Below are positions 1 through 7,682 of a stretch of 7,682 nt of DNA, piece by piece. Positions within the stretch are counted from its first letter, which is position 1; each line of letters starts with the position of its first letter. Made by a program: the position numbers and the translations under genes. The stretch comes from a virus (Duplodnaviria; Heunggongvirae; Uroviricota; Caudoviricetes): the IMG/VR virus record IMGVR_UViG_2695420859_000007, positions 1 to 7,682 of that record; one strand, written 5' to 3'. The notes beneath the pieces were generated by a model. The model had not been told where the DNA came from. It was given only the letters and a program-made list of their open reading frames with translations, and made no database searches.

Positions 1-206
1 AGTGATAAACATCCGGCTTCTTCCACCATCGCACCGGACAGGCGACTATGAGGGGACAACGCCGCGCTCCGTTAACGCGGTAAACCCCGGTGTGTATCGT
101 TTTTGATTATCCCCGCACACTCGCGCAGAGGAGTCTCCCTGTCGGGCTGCGGTCTCTGTTAATGCAGGAATACGGCGACAATACCGCGCATGGATAATAA
201 GGTCGC

Positions 207-431
207 TCAACACACTGGCTGTAATGCAGCGGATACCATGCGGCATTTAGCGGCATTCATCGTACACTCCACGGTTAGCTCTTCATTCGTGGCATTCACC
301 TGAAAGGTCCGGGAGTGTAATTGCGTACATTTACCACTGAACGAACCTTCAACAAGAACACGACCACGCTGCAAAATACGGAACGGAATTGTTCCCTGAA
401 AAGGTTCTACGGTTACCCGTAATTTCTTCAT
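207..431 (-). CDS. Hypothetical 74-aa protein, translationally coupled to Rz
   Basis: Its ATG overlaps the Rz stop (ATGA), and GGAGGA lies 4 nt upstream. Translates as [74 protein letters not shown], with four Cys. I do not recognise it, and it is not Bor-like. Confidence 0.45.
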
Positions 432-922
432 GTATCCTCCGGATAATAAAAAGCCAGCTTAGTGCACTGAGTGCGGATATATTCCTGCGCCCCTTCCAGC
501 TGCTTCTGCATTGTCATCAACCGTTCTCTGAGGATGAAATAATCCCGTTCAGCGGTGTCTGCCAGTCGGGGGCCGGTTGCATTATCCACGCTGGAGGTGC
601 CGGTGGCTTCACGCACGGTACCGGAGCAGGTGGCGTTGATCCGCAGGCGCTTACGACCAGCGGCAACATCAGCGCGCAGAGTTTCATTTTCAGCTCTCGC
701 ATCGGCTAATTCCTTCGTGTATCTGGCATCAAGTGCAGCAACATCACGCTGGCGCTGCTGCATATCAGTAATGGTTGCATTTGCCTGCTCCAGCTCACTG
801 ACTTTTTTATCGCGCTGCTCTTTGTAGGTTATGGCGTTATCACGGTAATGATTCAGCCCCAGACTAAGCACACCACAGGCTACCAGCAGGACAATAATCA
901 CCACACACAGAACACGGTTCAT
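428..922 (-). CDS. Rz: Spanin inner-membrane subunit Rz (i-spanin)
   Basis: From the ATG at 922: [39 protein letters not shown]...[17 protein letters not shown]...[18 protein letters not shown], closely matching lambda Rz. SD GGTGGTGA upstream. The track's GTG start at 1006 is a spurious 5' extension. Confidence 0.9.
517..702 (-). CDS. Rz1: Spanin outer-membrane lipoprotein subunit Rz1 (o-spanin), embedded in the +1 frame of Rz
   Basis: [22 protein letters not shown]... with a lipobox (VSAC) and a Pro-rich body ([27 protein letters not shown]) matching lambda Rz1. Confidence 0.85.
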
Positions 923-923
923 A

Positions 924-1010
924 TCACCACCAACGGATTGCCCAGACCAGAACAGCAATGGCCACAATACGAATAGCAAATGCCATTGCCCGAATAAGTT
1001 CAGCACTCAT
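924..1010 (-). CDS. Small hydrophobic ORF-3 (28 aa), ending 1 nt before the Rz ATG
   Basis: Translates as [28 protein letters not shown]. It shares the motif RA[LM]AFAI[KR].VA[VI] with ORF-2. It sits in a third frame and may be a frameshifted fragment. Confidence 0.25.
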
Positions 1011-1021
1011 CTTTTTAAAGT

Positions 1022-1144
1022 TCACGATTTCAGCGCAATGACCAGTTTTGCCAGCCCATACAGCATCGGAGACACAGCAATACCAACAGCCACCCACTTA
1101 ATAGCAAAAGCCAGCGCTCTGCTGATGTCATCAGTCACTGTCAC
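1022..1144 (-). CDS. Small hydrophobic ORF-2 (about 40 codons, GTG start overlapping the ORF-1 stop)
   Basis: GTGA overlap with the ORF-1 stop. Translates as (M)TVTDDISRALAFAIKWVAVGIAVSPMLYGLAKLVIALKS*. It is the C-terminal part of track ORF 1022..1294. Confidence 0.3.
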   Translation of the reverse strand: MTVTDDISRALAFAIKWVAVGIAVSPMLYGLAKLVIALKS

Positions 1145-1272
1145 CCCAGCAGCCCCGACGAAGACAACATCACCCAGGCGAGGGACAGAAAAAGAGCAAC
1201 CAGCATTAGTGAAAATGAAATACCGACAATCACACACAGGACCTTTGCCGGCGTTATGAGTTTGTCTGACAT
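1141..1272 (-). CDS. Small hydrophobic ORF-1 (42 aa), single predicted TM
   Basis: ATG at 1272 preceded by a strong SD (AAGGGG, 5-nt spacer). Translates as MSDKLITPAKVLCVIVGISFSLMLVALFLSLAWVMLSSGLLG*. Absent from the ORF track because it is short. Confidence 0.4.
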   Translation of the reverse strand: MSDKLITPAKVLCVIVGISFSLMLVALFLSLAWVMLSSSGLLG

Positions 1273-1439
1273 AGCTACCCCTTAATTGCCACAATTAACT
1301 GGGATACTACCCATAAAAAAGGGATGCTCCAGACCAGCAAAAATTTCCAGTTTGGTAATTGACTAATCATGAGTCGCAACTCCCTAATCAGTTTGCTAAA
1401 ATCAATCAAGGCAGCCTCCCATAGCTTACTGCCATAAAA

Positions 1440-1476
1440 ACAAAACCCCGCTTGCTGCCAACAAACGGGGTTTTTA
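1440..1476. terminator. Hairpin with flanking A- and T-tracts (potentially bidirectional intrinsic terminator) downstream of R
   Basis: Plus strand AAAACCCCGcTTG-CTGCCAA-CAAaCGGGGTTTTT. On the minus strand it lies about 90 nt after the R stop. Confidence 0.5.
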
Positions 1477-1564
1477 CTTTTATTCACTTACGTTTCGCCA
1501 GTTCGCAGGATTTCGTGTTATCCGTCCGCCTTGGCCAACGTCATTTATTAGCAAAATATTCTGC

Positions 1565-2098
1565 TTATCTGTCGATTCCCCAGCACGCCAGCGCGCTCTC
1601 CTGGTCACGACGGGATACCTGACCGTAACAGTTATTTGAGCGAATACGGCAGTCTCTGCCACCGTCCTTAATCCACCAGCGAATCGCCTCACATGCTCCC
1701 CTGCGATCACCAGCATTAATTCGTCTGTAAAACGTCGACGGGAAACACTTACCGGGACCAATGTTGTACGGACAGAATGACGCGATCCCCGCTTTCTGGG
1801 GTTCGGTCAATGGCACTTTGATGTTTTTCTCCACCCATGCCAGCGCCTTATCACGTTCGATGGCGTTAACCTGGTCGCATTTCTCCTTCGACAACTTCAT
1901 GCCCGGGACGACAGGTTTACCATCCACCAGAATGGCACCGCGACAGATGGTCCAGATACCCGCGCCATCACGGTATGCCGTGGTGTGGTTACCTTCCTTT
2001 TCATCCAGAAACTGGTCGAGAATGTCAGGCGCAGGCGCACCAGCGGCAATCAGCGCCAGAACGGCAGCCGACAGGCCGTATTTGATTTTGGTGTTCAT
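1565..2098 (-). CDS. R: SAR endolysin, GH24 T4-lysozyme-like muramidase (Stx-phage R type)
   Basis: 177 aa. The N-terminal Ala/Gly-rich weakly hydrophobic segment (YGLSAAVLALIAAGAPA) is typical of a signal-anchor-release domain. The catalytic spacing E-x8-D-x5-T sits in EGNHTTAYRDGAGIWT. The rest matches lambdoid and Stx-phage lysozymes. Confidence 0.9.
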   Translation of the reverse strand: MNTKIKYGLSAAVLALIAAGAPAPDILDQFLDEKEGNHTTAYRDGAGIWTICRGAILVDGKPVVPGMKLSKEKCDQVNAIERDKALAWVEKNIKVPLTEPQKAGIASFCPYNIGPGKCFPSTFYRRINAGDRRGACEAIRWWIKDGGRDCRIRSNNCYGQVSRRDQESALACWGIDR

Positions 2099-2134
2099 GG
2101 ATATATTAAATATTCAGCCGCTGTCCCTGGCCCA

Positions 2135-3124
2135 CTAAATACGCACTTTAAGATAAGTCAGCCCCGGATGAAGCCAGTAAGCCGGCACTTTTTTAAAAGG
2201 TGGAGTATTAAAATCACGAAGAAGAGCCTCCCGCACAATTGCATCCTTATCAGCACCACTGGCCAGCGCTTCAATCTCAGCGGCTACCTGAAGATATCCC
2301 ATGCAACGGCCCACGCGCTTCATCAGCCCCTGCTTTTTATTGTTCTTCAGGTAATCAATGGCAAATTCAATGAGCTCCTCACTGTGCTGGTGCGATGGAG
2401 GTGTTACTTTCCCATTTTCTGAGATGGTTATTTTCCCGGCATCACCGGATACAACAAAGGATGGCCGGTTACACTCCCATTCCAGCTCACTGAAATTATC
2501 ATTATGAATACTGAAACACTCTGCGAGATTTCTGCTCATCACTTTCCGGCAATAATCGTAAAACGCAGCAAACTGCTCATCGCGGCGTTTTTTTTCAGGC
2601 TGCTGAAGATGCTCTTTCAACCATGAAGCGCAGCTTAGATTCGCCGCGCGATCAGGAATAGCTTCTTTCATTTCGTCTGCTGCAAGCACCTCATTTTTTG
2701 TTGGGGTGCTTTTTTTCAATTCAGCGATATAGCACTCCAGTTTTTCAATACGCGATTCAACATCATCTTTTTCTGACCGCAGTGTTGACGGCGGCATCTT
2801 CAGAGAACAAGTAATTCTTCCCGGTAGCTTTCCTTTGTAGGTTATCAATACATCCTGCGCATCTAAAATTACGGGGCGCTTTTCCGGTGACGGTTCATCC
2901 CCTTCGCATAACCCGGCAACAATATCCATGAAAAACTGCTTCGCCTGTTTTTTCGCCTCAGCTTCGTAGAACTCCAGCGTGGCACCTTCAGTACGGTCAA
3001 GACTAATCGCCACATCTGGCAACAACAGTGACGGATACCCACCAATTTCCAGTGCCACAGTAACAGTAATCTTATCCGGGTAATTATTTATCCCTTTAAC
3101 ACCCAGTTCGTATTTTTTCTTCAT
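2135..3124 (-). CDS. Hypothetical protein, 329 aa, moron inserted between holin and endolysin; function unknown
   Basis: Long uninterrupted ORF on the operon strand. Its ATG lies 4 nt after the holin stop, with GGGGAG about 7 nt upstream. No signal peptide or TM segment. It has a charged, helical central region (SRIEKLECYIAELKK...EKKRRDEQFAAFYDY). I found no Walker, HNH or other motif I can trust. The DNA looks more AT-rich than the flanking lysis genes by eye. Confidence 0.7.
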   Translation of the reverse strand: MKKKYELGVKGINNYPDKITVTVALEIGGYPSLLLPDVAISLDRTEGATLEFYEAEAKKQAKQFFMDIVAGLCEGDEPSPEKRPVILDAQDVLITYKGKLPGRITCSLKMPPSTLRSEKDDVESRIEKLECYIAELKKSTPTKNEVLAADEMKEAIPDRAANLSCASWLKEHLQQPEKKRRDEQFAAFYDYCRKVMSRNLAECFSIHNDNFSELEWECNRPSFVVSGDAGKITISENGKVTPPSHQHSEELIEFAIDYLKNNKKQGLMKRVGRCMGYLQVAAEIEALASGADKDAIVREALLRDFNTPPFKKVPAYWLHPGLTYLKVRI

Positions 3125-3128
3125 CGCT

Positions 3129-3335
3129 TTACTCCCCCCGCGCCGCCTTACGACGGTCCTCCCTGATTTTGAAATACAGGTTAGTCAGATACGTCAGCAG
3201 GCCAAACAGCAGACTTCCCAGCACACCTATTGCCACCCACTGGGACGGAGAGACTTTGTCCAGCAGCTGCAGTAACCAGTATCCCGTCCCCACCGCTGAC
3301 GTGGTGTATGACACACCTGTTGTGATTTTTTCCAT
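3129..3335 (-). CDS. S: Holin, phage-21 S21-type pinholin (class II, two TM domains)
   Basis: 68 aa, [68 protein letters not shown]. This is near-identical in pattern to S21 (..[52 protein letters not shown]). Confidence 0.85.
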
Positions 3336-3380
3336 CTGATGTATGTCTCCGTCACCGCCGACAGAAAATGAAAGTAAAGA

Positions 3381-3416
3381 AAAACAAAAAAGCCGCCAGT
3401 GTCACCCACTGACGGC
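3381..3416 (-). terminator. Rho-independent terminator between nanS-p and the holin gene (minus-strand orientation)
   Basis: Minus strand GCCGTCAG-TGGGTGACA-CTGGCGGC followed by TTTTTTGTTTTT: an 8-bp stem with one G-U pair. Confidence 0.5.
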
Positions 3417-3580
3417 CAACTCCGGGAGCCGTGATTATGGCATTCAGGCTCTGCTAAAAATGCCAGATAACATTCCGGCCTCCCCTGATTCAGGTTATAA
3501 ATGACACAATATCTTGACAACATCCGTCACTATCTGTCAGAAAATGTACTGCCAGATATAAGTATCATGTGAAGTACATC

Positions 3581-3617
3581 TACCCGTTTTAGCCAGCGTC
3601 CTTCAGAGTGGGCGCTG
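3581..3617 (+). terminator. Rho-independent terminator oriented for the plus strand, abutting the nanS-p 3' end
   Basis: Plus strand AGCCAGCGtCC-TTCAGAGT-GGgCGCTGGCT followed by TTTTTTT. The minus-strand reading has no U-tract after the hairpin. Confidence 0.45.
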
Positions 3618-3627
3618 GCTTTTTTTA

Positions 3628-5412
3628 TTATGCTGCGGGTGCATTTATCTCCAGCACCAGACTTTCTATCTCAACGCCATACGCTGCATTTTTTGTAACA
3701 TCCGTCAGCGTCAGCGCATTCAGTCCCAGTGTCAGACTGTCTTTTATAACCTGGAATGCCGGGCCAGCCACTCCATTCAGTTTCGGAGTAACCGTGGCAC
3801 TGCCGGCGGTGAACACCAGCTCCAGCGTCTGCCAGTCGTTACCGTAATCGCCGAACTCCCCCAGCTTCGTGTTTCCGGCTTTCCTGTGATGCATCAGATT
3901 CACTCTGCCGTCAGTGGTCTGAGTGAAGTACGACATCAGGAACGGATTACCGGTACCCGTCATCGCCACACCATCAGGAACGGGAGCATCCGTATACAGA
4001 TAAATCCCCAGCCCGAACTGATTGTTGGTCAGTGCGCCTGACAGGCGGAACTTACAGGTCAGTCTGCCGCCCTGTGTCAGCAGGGTAATTGCGTCATCCA
4101 CCGGATGCGTCAGGGACCAGGTTTTATTGCTCTGCTTGGTGATCTTAAATACACCATCTGACAACTGAATTCCGCCATCCTTAATGCTCCAGCCCTGCGC
4201 AGCAGCCTCTCCGGCTGCCGGCAGCAGGGAGATTGTGCGAACGGACGTATCTGCAGACGGACCCGATGGCGTGTTGCCGCCGGGCGAGGGTTTGATTTCC
4301 GGTGCCTTACCACTGATGAAGGCTGAGGTGCGCCCGGCTGCGTTCAGAATAGCGGTTGCCAGACGATCCGGAATAATGCTCCTGCGCGCCCATGAACTGA
4401 AATGTGTCGGGCGGTTTGATGATACCTGGTTTCCATTCGTTCTCGATGCCGCACCGTAATATCCTGATGCCGGAATATCCGGATCTTCTGCCGGCGCGTT
4501 AGTGGCGGTATTGACACCGTTACCGTCTGTCATGAAGGGCACAAAATAAACGCCCTCACTCTCCCTGTTTTTATACCCGCCGTACACGGTGTCGTAACTG
4601 CCACCATGGCACTGCGCGTTAAACACGGAGAGGTCAGCACGAAACTGTGTCAGCATGGCTGTAAACAGCGCAGGTTGCTGTGCGTGGGTGGCGGCGCTCA
4701 TGTCAAACTCACCCTGCATCCAGCAGACGGCCAGCAGAACGTTTTTGGGATTTTTCTGCAATGCCGCTTTTGTGCGGGAAATCAGATCCTGATATAACGG
4801 CTTGCCCACCCCCCAGCGTGCCGAATCCTGACTGGCCCCCGTGGACTCGCTGAATGTCCCCTCCGCGCCCTGGGTAAATGCCGAACCACCACGACAGCAT
4901 GGTACCAGCAGGATCCCCGCGTTATTCGGGATATACGGGAGCAGTTTTTTGGCAATATGTAAACCCTGGCCGACACAGCCGTACTGCCCTTTGCTCAGGT
5001 CAGCCCTCGGATGATTCAGCGTACTCATATCCTGCACATCATGCAGACAGTGGTCAGCCGGAATAATATCGTTATATCTGCAGGCAGCCCCGCCCGGCGT
5101 CACTGTACTGCGGCGCGCCAGCTGTTTAATGCGCGGATCCGGAGCATCGTATGAATCCGGCAGCGGAAGCCCTTCACCGTAAGCCATGGCATTGGACTGC
5201 CCGGCCAGTACGATGACGTAGTACCACTCCGGCTCAGTTGCACCACTGACCACCACATCACCTTCTGCTGTAATCGCCTGCATCAGGGTATAAGGGGTTA
5301 TGGCCACCGGACTACCAAACGGCTGCCAGCCCTCTTTCAGTTTGTGTGTCAGCTTTTCCGCAAGGTCTGACGGCGACGCCGCCCTGACAACATCATAATG
5401 TTTAAATGTCAT
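3628..5412 (-). CDS. nanS-p: Prophage-encoded 9-O-acetyl-sialic acid esterase NanS-p (SGNH/DUF303-type esterase with a C-terminal lectin-like domain)
   Basis: 594 aa. The N-terminus MTFKHYDVVRAASPSDLAEKL and the esterase motif LAGQSNAM match the YjhS/NanS-p proteins found downstream of stx in Stx phages, as I recall them. The start has a good SD (GGGAGGA). Its position immediately upstream of S is the usual one. Confidence 0.85.
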   Translation of the reverse strand: MTFKHYDVVRAASPSDLAEKLTHKLKEGWQPFGSPVAITPYTLMQAITAEGDVVVSGATEPEWYYVIVLAGQSNAMAYGEGLPLPDSYDAPDPRIKQLARRSTVTPGGAACRYNDIIPADHCLHDVQDMSTLNHPRADLSKGQYGCVGQGLHIAKKLLPYIPNNAGILLVPCCRGGSAFTQGAEGTFSESTGASQDSARWGVGKPLYQDLISRTKAALQKNPKNVLLAVCWMQGEFDMSAATHAQQPALFTAMLTQFRADLSVFNAQCHGGSYDTVYGGYKNRESEGVYFVPFMTDGNGVNTATNAPAEDPDIPASGYYGAASRTNGNQVSSNRPTHFSSWARRSIIPDRLATAILNAAGRTSAFISGKAPEIKPSPGGNTPSGPSADTSVRTISLLPAAGEAAAQGWSIKDGGIQLSDGVFKITKQSNKTWSLTHPVDDAITLLTQGGRLTCKFRLSGALTNNQFGLGIYLYTDAPVPDGVAMTGTGNPFLMSYFTQTTDGRVNLMHHRKAGNTKLGEFGDYGNDWQTLELVFTAGSATVTPKLNGVAGPAFQVIKDSLTLGLNALTLTDVTKNAAYGVEIESLVLEINAPAA

Positions 5413-5444
5413 TATTCCTCCCGGCCGGGATAGTGTATTAAATC

Positions 5445-5491
5445 AGATATGGAGTGGGCTGTAGTCCGGAAGCCTGAATGACACACGGGGA
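5445..5491. repeat. Perfect 12-13 bp inverted repeat with 21-nt spacer in the nanS-p upstream region
   Basis: GGGCTGTAGTCC (5446..5457) and GGACTACAGCCC (5479..5490) are exact reverse complements. The repeat lies about 35-80 nt upstream of the nanS-p ATG and has no U-tract on either side. Confidence 0.6.
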
Positions 5492-5595
5492 CTACAGCCC
5501 AAGAAATGAAAAAAGGCCACGCAGTTGCGCAGCCTGATAAACCCTGGTTAAAATCCACACGATAACAACACAACAATATCAGTATCTCATGCTAT

Positions 5596-5621
5596 TGCCC
5601 GAACCCATTCGGGCATTTTTT
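5596..5621 (+). terminator. Rho-independent terminator (plus-strand orientation), convergent with the one at 5628..5651
   Basis: Plus strand TGCCCGAA-CCCA-TTCGGGCA followed by TTTTTT. Confidence 0.5.
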
Positions 5622-5627
5622 ACCCAT

Positions 5628-5651
5628 AAAAAAGCCCCTCCGGAGAGGGGC
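5628..5651 (-). terminator. Rho-independent terminator (minus-strand orientation)
   Basis: Minus strand GCCCCTC-TCCG-GAGGGGC followed by TTTTTTAT: a 7-bp GC-rich stem, 4-nt loop and U-tract. Confidence 0.55.
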
Positions 5652-5818
5652 ATGTTTGCATGCACATTCTTTTTCTTGCATGGTGCCGGGTGCCTCCCGG
5701 TGAATTCAGTATCAGCACCTGAATCCGCGATTATCACATATACCTGGTTGCTGATTGCCCCTCCGCACAGGGGGATTCACCATGCAGTAGTATTTTTAAT
5801 AAACAGTAAACAAAAAAA

Positions 5819-5986
5819 TCAAGCATTATGCAGGCTGTTTCTTTTTATCACCGGCCACAGCAATACCACAATGCCGCAGACCAGCACCCCATCCGCCAGC
5901 ACCGACATGATTCTGCTGGTGAAATCCACCATCACCACCAGAAACAGCAGGAGTGCAGCCACAGCCAGGCGCAGTTTTACCGTCAC
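5819..5986 (-). CDS. Small hydrophobic ORF (55 codons from GTG; possible internal ATG starts), two predicted TM segments
   Basis: Its GTG overlaps the TerB-remnant stop (GTGA). It translates as VTVKLRLAVAALLLFLVVMVDFTSRIMSVLADGVLVCGIVVLLWPVIKRNSLHNA*. There is no strong SD, so it could be a chance ORF. Confidence 0.2.
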   Translation of the reverse strand: MTVKLRLAVAALLLFLVVMVDFTSRIMSVLADGVLVCGIVVLLWPVIKRNSLHNA

Positions 5987-6443
5987 TGGTGATTCTCCAG
6001 ACGAAGACCCAGAACACCGGCAATCTCTTCCAGCACCTTGCGCTCTTCCGGCTCAATTTCGCCGTCTGCCTCCGCAATGGCCACCGCCACATCCAGCACA
6101 TCTTCCGCTTCACGCGTATCGTGTTTCACATCCTCGATCTCACGTAACGCCGCACGACGACCAATTTTAAAGTTCGTATCCAGCTGACCGATAATGGTTG
6201 CGCTAATCGCATTAATTTCTGACGTAAACGCGGACAGCGCAGGCTGATTACGCAGTACCTGTTCGATCTTCGCTTTCTAGGAAGCCTCACATTCACCATC
6301 TGCACAGGCCACCAGGTAGGCAGCATTAATAACCGCCTGTGCCAGATCGCGTTTCTCAAACTTTCCTTTTTCCGGTTAACGTGACACACCAATAACTCTT
6401 GTCGAAAAAGCCAGCAAGCTGAAAGACCGGTATTCACAACCAC
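5983..6443 (-). pseudogene. TerB-family (tellurite-resistance TerB-like) gene remnant, disrupted by an in-frame TAG and at least one frameshift
   Basis: The C-terminal ~97 codons are intact (KAKIEQVLRNQPALSAF...LDVAVAIAEADGEIEPEERKVLEEIAGVLGLRLENHQ*) and show the two TerB-like 'hydrophobic-ADGE' repeats. Upstream the frame is broken by TAG (plus-strand ctag near 6278), a TAA, and a frame change in the run ggaaaaaggaaag. The ORF track splits it into out-of-frame ORFs 6126..6443 and 5826..6113. Confidence 0.5.
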
Positions 6444-6480
6444 CAGCGCGTTTACTGTACTGGCGTGATTTCAGTCATAA

Positions 6481-6507
6481 AAAAACCCGCCTGGCGACGG
6501 GTGTAAA
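6481..6507 (-). terminator. Candidate tR'-like intrinsic terminator downstream of pR'
   Basis: Minus strand ACCCG-TCGCCAGG-CGGGT followed by TTTTTTT, about 45 nt downstream of the putative start. The stem is only 5 bp, so this is a modest terminator. Confidence 0.4.
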
Positions 6508-6529
6508 AAATCTTCTAACGTCAGGCATA

Positions 6530-6577
6530 AAACGCCCATCGTTAGGGCAAATTTACCACAGATTCGGGAAAAATCAA
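6530..6577 (-). promoter_or_regulatory. pR'-like late promoter with qut-like element
   Basis: Minus strand just after the Q stop reads TTGATT-(16 nt)-TAAATTTGCCCTAACGATGGGCG. This closely resembles lambda pR' (TTGACT...GGTAAATTTGACTCAACGATGGGTTAA), including the -10 TAAATT and the ACGATGGG start region. Confidence 0.6.
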
Positions 6578-6582
6578 CAAAG

Positions 6583-7404
6583 CTATCTGGTCACCTTTTT
6601 CAGTTGTTGTTCTGCCCATGCTTCTTCAATATCAAACTGCACCACCAGCGTATCGTAAAAACGTTTAACTGTTTTTTTCCATGTATCAAGAGATATGGCA
6701 TCGGTTACATTACATATGGCATTAAATGCCTCCGTTGAAGGTAATCTTTCATAGCCACGACCACCACAACGCTGGCAGTCTCTGATAACAGGCATACCAC
6801 GTTTTACCGACTCTTCACGATGAATGGCAACACCTCGCCCACGACAATCTTTACAGGCGGTGGAAACCTCCCCCTTCCCTCCACACTCCGGACAGGCAAC
6901 TTTTACCACCTCCCTGACTTTTTTCCATTCCTCCCAGTAAGACGGATACACGCCTTTTGTGCACTTTGCCCACACTGGCGGCTTACCATCCGGATACTGG
7001 ATCTTGTTTGTAAAAACCTCGCTTTCAATAAATTTTTTTCCGTGACAACAGGGGCACTGTTTTTTGCTCGCCGCGCTACGGGCATAATCTTCAAACGCAT
7101 ACGAAGCCATAATACGCATCACTGCCGGTTTTATTTCTGCCGGGAGTTTTCTTAACGCCGCCACGCGATCACACCGACTGAGTGCATATTCTGTCAGCAA
7201 TTCTGTTGCCCGCTCTCTGTCATTCATACTAATGCCCATTTTCCCAAGGAACGCAGAAAACCCCATCTCAGCCCAATTCTGTGTCATGCCCTGCGCAGCC
7301 ATCACATCAGTGATACTCAGCGTATCTTTCGACGTTGAGGCCGATGCATCAGTCAGGCCGGGGGATTTTGGGGAGTAGTATTTCGGTAAATCTTCCAGTT
7401 TCAT
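6583..7404 (-). CDS. Q: Late-gene antiterminator Q (lambda Q family, carrying an extra Cys-rich insertion)
   Basis: 273 aa. The N-terminus (MKLEDLPKYYSPKSPG...TDVMAAQGM) and C-terminus (YDTLVVQ...KKVTR) line up with lambda Q as I remember it. It has four CxxCxGxG motifs (CPCCHGKK, CPECGGKG, CKDCRGRG, CQRCGGRG). It sits directly downstream of rusA and upstream of a lambda pR'-like promoter. Confidence 0.8.
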   Translation of the reverse strand: MKLEDLPKYYSPKSPGLTDASASTSKDTLSITDVMAAQGMTQNWAEMGFSAFLGKMGISMNDRERATELLTEYALSRCDRVAALRKLPAEIKPAVMRIMASYAFEDYARSAASKKQCPCCHGKKFIESEVFTNKIQYPDGKPPVWAKCTKGVYPSYWEEWKKVREVVKVACPECGGKGEVSTACKDCRGRGVAIHREESVKRGMPVIRDCQRCGGRGYERLPSTEAFNAICNVTDAISLDTWKKTVKRFYDTLVVQFDIEEAWAEQQLKKVTR

Positions 7405-7682
7405 TTTTTGACCTGCCCTTCAAGCATTATGGGGTAAATCTTCACCCCCAGACGTCCACCAGATACTGGCTGAGCACGAACGATATTGATTTCATCAAAC
7501 TGCTCATCGTCCATTAGCAACCCCGCATGCGTCAGCGCATCCAGCGGCGCTTTCAGAATATTGTCCAAGTCACGGCGGCGCTTATCCGGTGGCTCGGCAA
7601 TAATCTTTATCGCCAGCCTTCCGGACAGGCTTAATTTCAGCCGCTGCTGGCGAACAATAAGCGCCACAGCCCGGCGATAACG
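7401..7682 (-). CDS. rusA: Holliday-junction resolvase RusA, partial (N-terminus lies beyond the window end)
   Basis: The translation contains the RusA signature PDKRRRDLDN...DALTHAG...DDEQ. The reading frame stays open to the window edge, so the GTG at 7667 in the ORF track is not the true start. Its stop overlaps the Q start (ATGA), the lambdoid rusA-Q arrangement. Confidence 0.75.
   Translation of the reverse strand, partial: RYRRAVALIVRQQRLKLSLSGRLAIKIIAEPPDKRRRDLDNILKAPLDALTHAGLLMDDEQFDEINIVRAQPVSGGRLGVKIYPIMLEGQVKK

Follow-up and report, generated by a model that had tools for sequence, protein, structure and literature searches.

What is the gene that lies between the holin gene S and the endolysin gene R in the virus record IMGVR_UViG_2695420859_000007, and what might its product do there? 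The stretch analysed, here referred to as the window, comprises positions 1 to 7,682 of that IMG/VR record (7,682 nucleotides, nt), and as a whole it is 99.8% identical to lambdoid prophage DNA of human E. coli isolates. A first-pass annotation of these letters had reported an open reading frame (ORF) of 990 bp and 329 amino acids (aa) between S and R, described it as unrecognised and without an assignable motif, and named defence or superinfection exclusion among its candidate functions. The ORF is indeed there, on the minus strand, with its start ATG at 3124 and its stop TAG at 2137-2135, but the protein belongs to a known family. Residues 1-100 match the Pfam family DUF1327 (PF07041) at E 3.9e-41, scoring 139.6 bits where the cut-off is 25 (profile positions 1-88 of 93), and the protein matches phrog_1085, a family of unknown function, from end to end (residues 1-329 on profile positions 1-296 of 296, E 6.7e-182). 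The name assigned by the Prokaryotic Genome Annotation Pipeline (PGAP) is 'YdfR family protein', and proteins 97-100% identical to the ORF product are likewise named YdfR family or DUF1327. An identical protein has been deposited several times (e.g., CTS70203.1 and EGD4694612.1), and the cluster formed at 90% identity has 648 members. The ORF is almost certainly a genuine coding gene whose product is a long form of YdfR built from three parts. The family, a common mosaic accessory of the late operon, is found in lambdoid prophages with cassettes of a P21-type holin and a lysozyme in Escherichia, Shigella, and Salmonella, and the sequence, family, and gene order of this ORF are already in the databases.

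The anatomy of the protein was derived from alignments with 160-480 homologues and from two AlphaFold models (AF2), for which confidence is given as the predicted local distance difference test (pLDDT). The gene and the segments of its product are as follows:

2135-3124, minus strand: long-form YdfR-family ORF, 329 aa, 37.1 kDa (ORF list; phrog_1085)
2900-3124, minus strand: aa 1-75, DUF1327 core of three beta-strands and one long helix (PF07041; AF2 model)
2771-2899, minus strand: aa 76-118, conserved segment of low model confidence, PEKRPVILDAQDVLITYKGKLPGRIT..PPSTLRSEK (alignment; pLDDT <40)
2708-2770, minus strand: aa 119-139, coiled-coil-like helix, DDVESRIEKLECYIAELKK (alignments; model helix 122-138)
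2600-2707, minus strand: aa 140-175, optional insertion, STPTKNEVLAADEMKEAIPDRAANLSCASWLKEHLQQ (alignment)
2459-2599, minus strand: aa 176-222, helical linker, PEKKRRDEQFAAFYDYCRKVMSRNLAECF... (alignment; residues 1-47 of the second model, pLDDT 39-49)
2138-2458, minus strand: aa 223-329, conserved C-terminal domain (invariant alignment columns; AF2; substitution rates)

The DUF1327 core is modelled at pLDDT 63-86, with strands at residues 5-14, 18-27, and 38-43 and the helix at 50-73, and it is 43% identical to residues 1-74 of K-12 YdfR (32/74 in BLASTP). The segment that follows is found in the E. coli long forms and also in forms of 183 and 211 aa. The coiled-coil-like helix is the point at which stand-alone C-module proteins start, and an equivalent helix is present in the Salmonella relatives. 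The insertion is missing from the 296-aa forms and can still be recognised in a distant relative (P0127). The core of the C-terminal domain (C-domain; aa 216-290, pLDDT 81-92) is a three-stranded beta-meander packed on two long helices, and a conserved tail completes the domain. Its signature consists of F223, G230, H247, I256, L259, K269, G272-R273, M275, and L278-Q279 in the first half and of A281-A282-E283-I284-E285, R298, P308-P309-F-K311, W317, P320-G321, and Y324-L325 in the second. Between E. coli and Salmonella forms, which share 26-34% overall identity, 16 C-domain columns are invariant; these include H247, G272-R273, L278-Q279, A281-A282, P309, K311, W317, P320-G321, and Y324-L325.

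Beyond DUF1327 and phrog_1085, neither of which carries a proven function, the searches found no protein of established function among sequence or structure matches, in agreement with the earlier statement that a function could not be assigned. No match was obtained in NCBIfam. Sequence searches of the PDB with the single protein and with a family profile returned nothing below E 0.4, and Foldseek searches with the full-length model had best values of E 0.2 against the PDB and E 0.37 against BFVD. Weak Foldseek matches to a double-stranded RNA-binding domain and to a levivirus coat protein did not reach significance and carry no weight here. No Pfam model matches aa 223-329, a domain that does match fragments phrog_26186 and phrog_36381, and no relative of the C-domain was found by sequence or fold in the PDB or BFVD. 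A HMMER search with aa 115-329 against 1.84 billion representatives returned 27 clusters, all of the same family and none forming a bridge to an annotated family, and Pfam searches of the distant relatives gave a single DUF1327 match below threshold.

Long forms of this type occur in several named phages. Members of phrog_1085 include gp05 of the Shiga toxin 2 (Stx2)-converting phage 86 (YP_794052.1, 268 aa) and BCI50300.1 of the Stx2a phage Stx2_95 (329 aa); they occupy the same slot 3' of S, their C-domains are 82-94% identical to that of the window protein, and they differ from it only in the length of the middle region (total lengths 268, 287, 296, and 325-333 aa). DNA for the YdfR-type N-terminal domain (N-domain) is present in 2,999 of the 5,426 complete E. 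coli genomes, as many as 8 times in a single genome, and in H-19B, BP-4795, and many Stx1a and Stx2 phages, S, the 5' part of the ORF, and R are matched in the same order. YdfR-type genes therefore lie inside the lysis cassettes of prophages in more than half of the complete E. coli genomes, Stx-converting phages included, and two published surveys of Stx-phage lysis cassettes do not mention them. The C-domain is rarer. Its DNA is found in 787 of the same 5,426 genomes, its protein in 5 Stx2-converting phages among 50,697 deposited phage genomes, and its loci number 3, all in Escherichia or Shigella, among the representative genomes of 185,579 species. With the Salmonella relatives added, the C-domain is restricted to prophages of Escherichia, Shigella, and Salmonella.

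The modules of the family recombine freely and come in five arrangements, i.e., I) DUF1327 alone, as in K-12 (103 aa); II) DUF1327 with the middle region, in the 183- and 211-aa forms (e.g., PhiR5_1); III) DUF1327 fused to the C-domain, in proteins of 268-333 aa as in the window; IV) the coiled coil and C-domain alone, as proteins of 185-213 aa in the same slot, 3 nt 3' of the holin gene (L007-L010 and L024 among the homologous loci compared); and V) a split form in reversed order, in which a C-module gene precedes a separate DUF1327 gene of 75 aa (L011-L014). Such fusion, splitting, and reordering, a Rosetta-stone pattern, are a classical sign that DUF1327 and the C-module work together. The long form itself is a conserved, ancestral-looking architecture. 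Some loci also carry, directly 3' of the long or C-module gene and convergent with it, an ORF of about 104 aa that belongs to phrog_1853 (L007 4652-4966, minus strand; L005 3663-3977, plus strand; L018 2325-2642, minus strand) and is absent from the window. Its neighbour on the other side is R in E. coli and S in Salmonella, and the proteins of the two genera are 49% identical; unrelated antisense ORFs occupy the corresponding place in L011, L006, L015, and L020.

Proteins with the same three-part plan, assigned to the same PHROG, are encoded by Salmonella enterica prophages (e.g., P0155, P0157, and P0176; 250-340 aa). Their C-domains carry the signature H..GRCMGxLQVAAEIE..DNPPFK..W..PG..YLK.R, and their genes lie on the late strand near a class II holin, a lysozyme, and Rz. 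Unlike the E. coli long forms, these proteins are only 26-34% identical to the window protein overall, with N-domains too diverged for a significant DUF1327 score, and the genes are placed between Q (with an antisense hicAB pair) and the holin gene, with a Shine-Dalgarno (SD) sequence of their own. Since the Salmonella gene lies 5' of the holin gene, it is the late-operon and lysis neighbourhood with a class II holin and lysozyme that is conserved across genera, and not the exact slot. The long architecture, the C-domain signature with its restricted range, the shuffling of modules, and the relocation in Salmonella have not been described in the searchable literature, and the same is true of the annotation artefact discussed below.

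Selection on the gene was assessed by the ratio of nonsynonymous to synonymous substitution rates (dN/dS; Nei-Gojobori) against five independent homologous loci. The ratio is 0.15-0.36 for the C-domain core and 0.2-0.46 for the N-domain, and therefore both terminal domains are under purifying selection and are maintained as protein. The segment aa 76-118 gives 0.33-0.35 against Stx2_95 and PhiR5_1. Two N-domain alleles are found on the same C-module, a K-12 type (P0024, 81% identical to YdfR over residues 1-74) and the window type (43%). Relative to the nearest genome (L001), all differences in the ORF fall within codons 1-75 (dN 0.029, dS 0.063) and codons 76-329 are identical; with differences confined in this way, the alignment indicates a recombination breakpoint at the N-domain boundary. 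A further, common variant, P0041 (305 aa; 275 contigs), is 97% identical to the ORF product up to about residue 205 and then continues into an unrelated C-terminus of 100 aa. A frameshift of window DNA was considered for it and rejected, as this C-terminus is encoded in no frame of the window (tblastn), and P0041 is another module replacement at the locus.

How the gene is expressed can be read in part from its junctions, which involve the following features:

3129-3335, minus strand: class II (P21-type) holin S, 68 aa (PF04971, E 8.8e-33; holin families phrog_9876 and phrog_20)
3132-3139, minus strand: SD run GGGGGGAG, read in the sequence within the 3' end of the holin gene
2099-2134, minus strand: 36-nt spacer between the ORF and R
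1565-2098, minus strand: phage lysozyme R (PF00959, E 1.4e-24; endolysin family phrog_7)

The distance from the holin stop to the ATG of the ORF is 4 nt (AGCG), and this spacing and the 36 nt to R are exactly as first reported. The GGAG core of GGGGGGAG ends 7 nt 5' of the ATG, where the holin gene runs through its last codons (..R-G-E-stop). The same junction, ...CGGGGAGAGTAA or TAG followed by 3-4 nt and ATG, is common to 11 E. coli/Shigella loci. In 933W the slot is empty, and R is directly served by the same holin-embedded SD element and a 4-nt spacer. The start of R in the window (..aaatatcc ATG) is without a GGAG-type SD. This holds throughout the occupied slots of the window, L001, L002, L003, L005-L007, L011, and L024, in which R is preceded by ..(a/t)aatatc(c/t) ATG; the first six or so codons of R also differ between occupied slots (MNTKIK) and 933W (MSRKLR). 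Occupancy of the slot may alter the translation of R.

A consensus scan of the coding strand found no sigma-70-like promoter between S and R, which is not proof of absence, and convincing terminator hairpins on that strand are located solely 5' of S (3417-3391) and 3' of R (1474-1442). The simplest reading is therefore that the ORF is transcribed along with S and R, and the proposed membership of the late/lysis transcript is consistent with it. In E. coli the family holds a fixed slot immediately 3' of the holin gene and takes over the SD embedded there, so that the product should almost certainly appear late, on the Q-dependent transcript shared with S and R, and stay in the cytoplasm. No RNA family was found within the ORF by an Rfam scan. 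The protein contains no transmembrane (TM) segment, as had been stated (maximum Kyte-Doolittle 19-residue mean 1.18; isoelectric point 6.3), nor a signal-peptide-like N-terminus, and is cytoplasmic. As to composition, the GC content and GC at third codon positions (GC3) are 0.459 and 0.445 for the ORF, 0.541 and 0.652 for S, 0.547 and 0.607 for R, 0.556 and 0.600 for the nanS-p-type gene, and 0.477 and 0.453 for Q. The ORF is thus AT-richer than S, R, and nanS-p, as the first-pass annotation had noted; the difference is real but modest, because Q is similarly low, and not unique in this mosaic region.

The closest experimentally studied relative is YdfR of the Qin prophage of K-12 (b1555, P76160). 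The order essQ, 4 nt, ydfR, rrrQ is the same as in the window, as is the SD embedded in the holin gene, and together with the frequency of N-domain DNA in E. coli genomes this shows that an occupied S-R slot is no anomaly. The beta-beta-beta-alpha domains at the N-termini of the two proteins are homologous (43% identical over 74 aa; the value is 81% for other long forms). The proteins differ in that K-12 YdfR is a single domain of 103 aa with a short helical tail, its gene overlapping rrrQ by 4 nt, whereas the window protein has 329 aa with a coiled coil and a conserved C-domain and is separated from R by the 36-nt gap. At the DNA level (blastn), K-12 and the window are homologous over S and in patches of the 5' part of ydfR, with continuous homology within ydfR over the first ~70 nt only, and homology resumes 6 nt before R; blastn gave no evidence that the YdfR tail derives from the 3' end of a long form, and these matches speak neither for nor against K-12 YdfR as a deletion derivative of the long form.

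For K-12 YdfR a link to RNA decay has been reported. Residues 1-72 were recovered in a genomic bacterial two-hybrid screen with RNase G as bait, and for YdfR an interaction with Rne 1-597 is reported, as is in vivo co-purification with FLAG-tagged Rne 1-598, the YdfR eluate holding DNase-resistant nucleic acid (PMC13232886). The gene is virtually silent in uninduced cells (PMC13232886). No functional literature on YdfR or DUF1327 was found besides that paper. RNase E association and co-purifying RNA hold for the K-12 homologue; the same for the window allele, any role of the C-domain, and any effect on phage RNA or lysis are inferred.

On this basis a mechanism is proposed in which DUF1327 would attach the protein to RNA and/or to host RNase E, in the latter case at the catalytic N-terminal half, the coiled coil would oligomerise the protein, and a further surface, for binding or as effector, would come from the C-domain. 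The net effect would be an altered RNase E-dependent decay of late RNA; e.g., the long late transcript, which covers the lysis and virion genes, might be protected or processed. That the protein is such a late, cytoplasmic, probably oligomeric factor docking on RNase E or RNA is possible, though doubtful at present, and the explanation as a whole, identity and mechanism together, is put forward as the best available one in a tentative sense. A more far-reaching version, in which the C-domain is a new fold brought to RNase E or RNA by YdfR in cis or by a DUF1327 partner in trans, where it would reprogram late-transcript decay and hence the balance of S, R, and virion proteins and the timing of lysis, is rather unlikely; if true, YdfR-family genes would be widespread RNase E modulators of temperate phages, placed within pinholin/SAR-endolysin cassettes (SAR = signal-anchor-release).

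Phages are known to target RNase E by means of other proteins, e.g., T4 Srd, T7 gp0.7, and phiKZ Dip (gp37), and T4 Srd targets the N-terminal catalytic half of the enzyme. These three have been discussed as RNase E modulators (PMC13232886, PMC4980113). The likeness to the window protein is a works-like analogy only, that of a phage protein contacting host RNase E. They are early or middle genes of virulent phages, unlike the late gene of a temperate phage found here, and no similarity to them was detected by sequence or fold in PDB searches that included the Dip structures.

Several observations weigh against the proposed mechanism. The RNase E evidence comes from a homologue that is only 43% identical to the window allele; long forms with a K-12-type N-domain on the same C-module do exist (P0024). 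Contact between K-12 YdfR and RNase E rests on two-hybrid data and in vivo co-purification (PMC13232886), and as these do not comprise an in vitro pull-down after nuclease treatment, the contact could be bridged by RNA. Overexpression of K-12 YdfR changed few transcripts and had no effect on growth (PMC13232886). Stand-alone C-module proteins without DUF1327 are common, which means that the C-domain has to be capable of functioning where no RNase E-docking domain is present in cis. Outside aa 1-70 and 216-290 the models are of low confidence. Finally, 933W lyses with an empty S-R slot, and phage 21 lyses without a gene in it.

A direct role in lysis is the main alternative. A cytoplasmic accessory of lysis timing could act on the pinholin, e.g., on its charged cytoplasmic C-tail, or on production of the SAR endolysin, with a logic analogous to that of T4 RIII, a small cytoplasmic protein that serves as antiholin cofactor. 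Extra genes in, and co-expressed with, a holin-endolysin cassette are also represented by the S21-71 antiholin, T4 RI, Mu releasin, and P1 LydB. At all loci examined, in two genera, the family is paired with a P21-type/class II holin and a PF00959 lysozyme, and in E. coli the gene lies 3-4 nt from S and displaces R from the S-embedded SD to an SD-less leader, so that occupancy of the slot alone could shift the ratio of S to R expression. A genetic screen linking ydfR to envelope integrity, as cited in PMC13232886, points in the same direction, but its result could be a polar effect on rrrQ. However, the ORF product has neither a TM segment nor an amphipathic membrane anchor and shares no homology with these antiholins and lysis regulators, and searches of Pfam, the PHROG lysis category, and NCBIfam returned no match to an antiholin or lysis regulator. 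In Salmonella the gene is 5' of S with an antisense ORF in between, so that a close coupling to S is not kept there, and K-12 YdfR was overexpressed without a growth or lysis phenotype (PMC13232886). A lysis-timing accessory, though the main rival, is considered rather improbable. Slightly less probable again is that the gene is a dispensable mosaic passenger, kept by linkage to the lysis cassette, of little benefit to the phage at hand, and decaying in cryptic prophages. Frameshifted copies (L004 CD45 and L024 Shigella), the many truncated architectures (103, 183, and 211 aa, and 305 aa with an unrelated C-terminus), the function of 933W with an empty slot, and the rarity of the C-core protein among deposited phage genomes (5/50,697) would fit such a passenger, but purifying selection on both terminal domains, the 16 invariant C-domain columns at 26-34% identity, an ORF intact in the window and its closest genomes, and a cluster of 648 members do not.

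The suggestion that the gene is a moron serving anti-phage defence, the exclusion of superinfecting phages, or host fitness fares less well, finds no positive evidence, and is improbable. GC3 below that of S, R, and nanS-p, a highly mosaic slot in which modules and alleles are swapped, and the convergent phrog_1853 gene of some related loci, which could be expressed from the prophage, are compatible with it. The last of these is absent from the window, however, no PADLOC-DB v2 defence family was matched at E<=1, and no NCBIfam family was matched. All neighbours are late or lysis genes. In the scan described above the gene showed no promoter or terminator of its own, and its SD is borrowed from the holin gene, so expression should begin only with Q-dependent late transcription, by which time the cell is already bound to lyse. 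K-12 ydfR is nearly without reads in uninduced cells and causes no growth defect when overexpressed (PMC13232886). It is scarcely credible that the ORF is untranslated or that it arose when ydfR was accidentally joined to an ORF downstream. Such a notion draws on a PGAP record for a 99.2%-identical copy, in which only the first 336 nt are called, as a partial YdfR pseudogene, and on the fact that the 3' part is often left unannotated. But in the genome concerned the frame is open over all 990 nt, an open frame of 329 codons is expected by chance with (61/64)^329, about 1e-7 per start, the two-domain architecture is kept in Salmonella, dN/dS of the C-core is below 0.4, phrog_1085 models the full length, and other annotators call the full ORF (Stx2_95 BCI50300.1; NCBI CTS70203.1).

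The flagged copy deserves a remark of its own. At L001 4001-4990 (NZ_CP148579.1), PGAP calls a pseudogene that covers only the initial 336 nt, under the name 'YdfR family protein, incomplete, missing C-terminus'. Because the frame is intact, this pseudo flag on an intact long ydfR is an annotation artefact, and the mis-flagging of long forms is systematic. C-domain DNA is often left by PGAP with no annotation ('none') in complete genomes, including O104:H4, and L004 is also affected.

Taken together, these findings make the former 'hypothetical' protein a concrete, testable target. If the RNase E link of K-12 YdfR extends to the phage alleles, this would be a case of a temperate phage interfering with RNA decay in its host while late genes are expressed, and the burst of Stx phages and the release of toxin might be affected; if the link fails, the gene stays an ordinary accessory ORF.

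The genes of the window all share the minus strand and follow one another as RusA, Q, nanS-p-type gene, holin S, ORF, R, and Rz. Besides the features listed above, these include:

6583-7404, minus strand: Q antiterminator
3628-5412, minus strand: nanS-p-type SASA esterase
428-1006, minus strand: Rz

The N-terminus of R is rich in Gly and Ala and weakly hydrophobic, and R is a predicted SAR endolysin; the R genes of Stx phages are described as encoding R21-like SAR endolysins (PMC8136144). In the holin gene (68 aa, MEKITT...; 3129-3335, minus strand) an upstream in-frame start codon is absent, and this holin therefore does not have the MKSM-type N-terminal extension, which is the source of the longer antiholin form in P21-type holins of 71 aa. 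The allele, of 207 nt, is shared with L001, and the holin gene has 216 nt in Stx2_95, L007, L024, and 933W. Between R and Rz, the hairpin at 1442-1474 on the minus (late) strand is strong and terminator-like, with a 15-bp stem and a T-run. The R-Rz interval of about 560 nt holds small ORFs only, and its counterpart in L001 is annotated as three short hypothetical proteins.

Two known prophage-borne small RNA (sRNA) genes, unrelated to the ORF, lie adjacent and divergent between Q and nanS-p, i.e., AgvB (an anti-GcvB sRNA; 5560-5621, plus strand; 96.5 bits) and STnc100 (5622-5811, minus strand; 147.8 bits), both with Rfam matches well above the gathering score. Between Q and the sRNA genes, L001 (7751-8277) encodes a DUF3927 protein and a TerB-family pseudogene with an internal stop, and in the counterpart region of the window (about 5885-6411, minus strand) the corresponding ORFs are fragmented.

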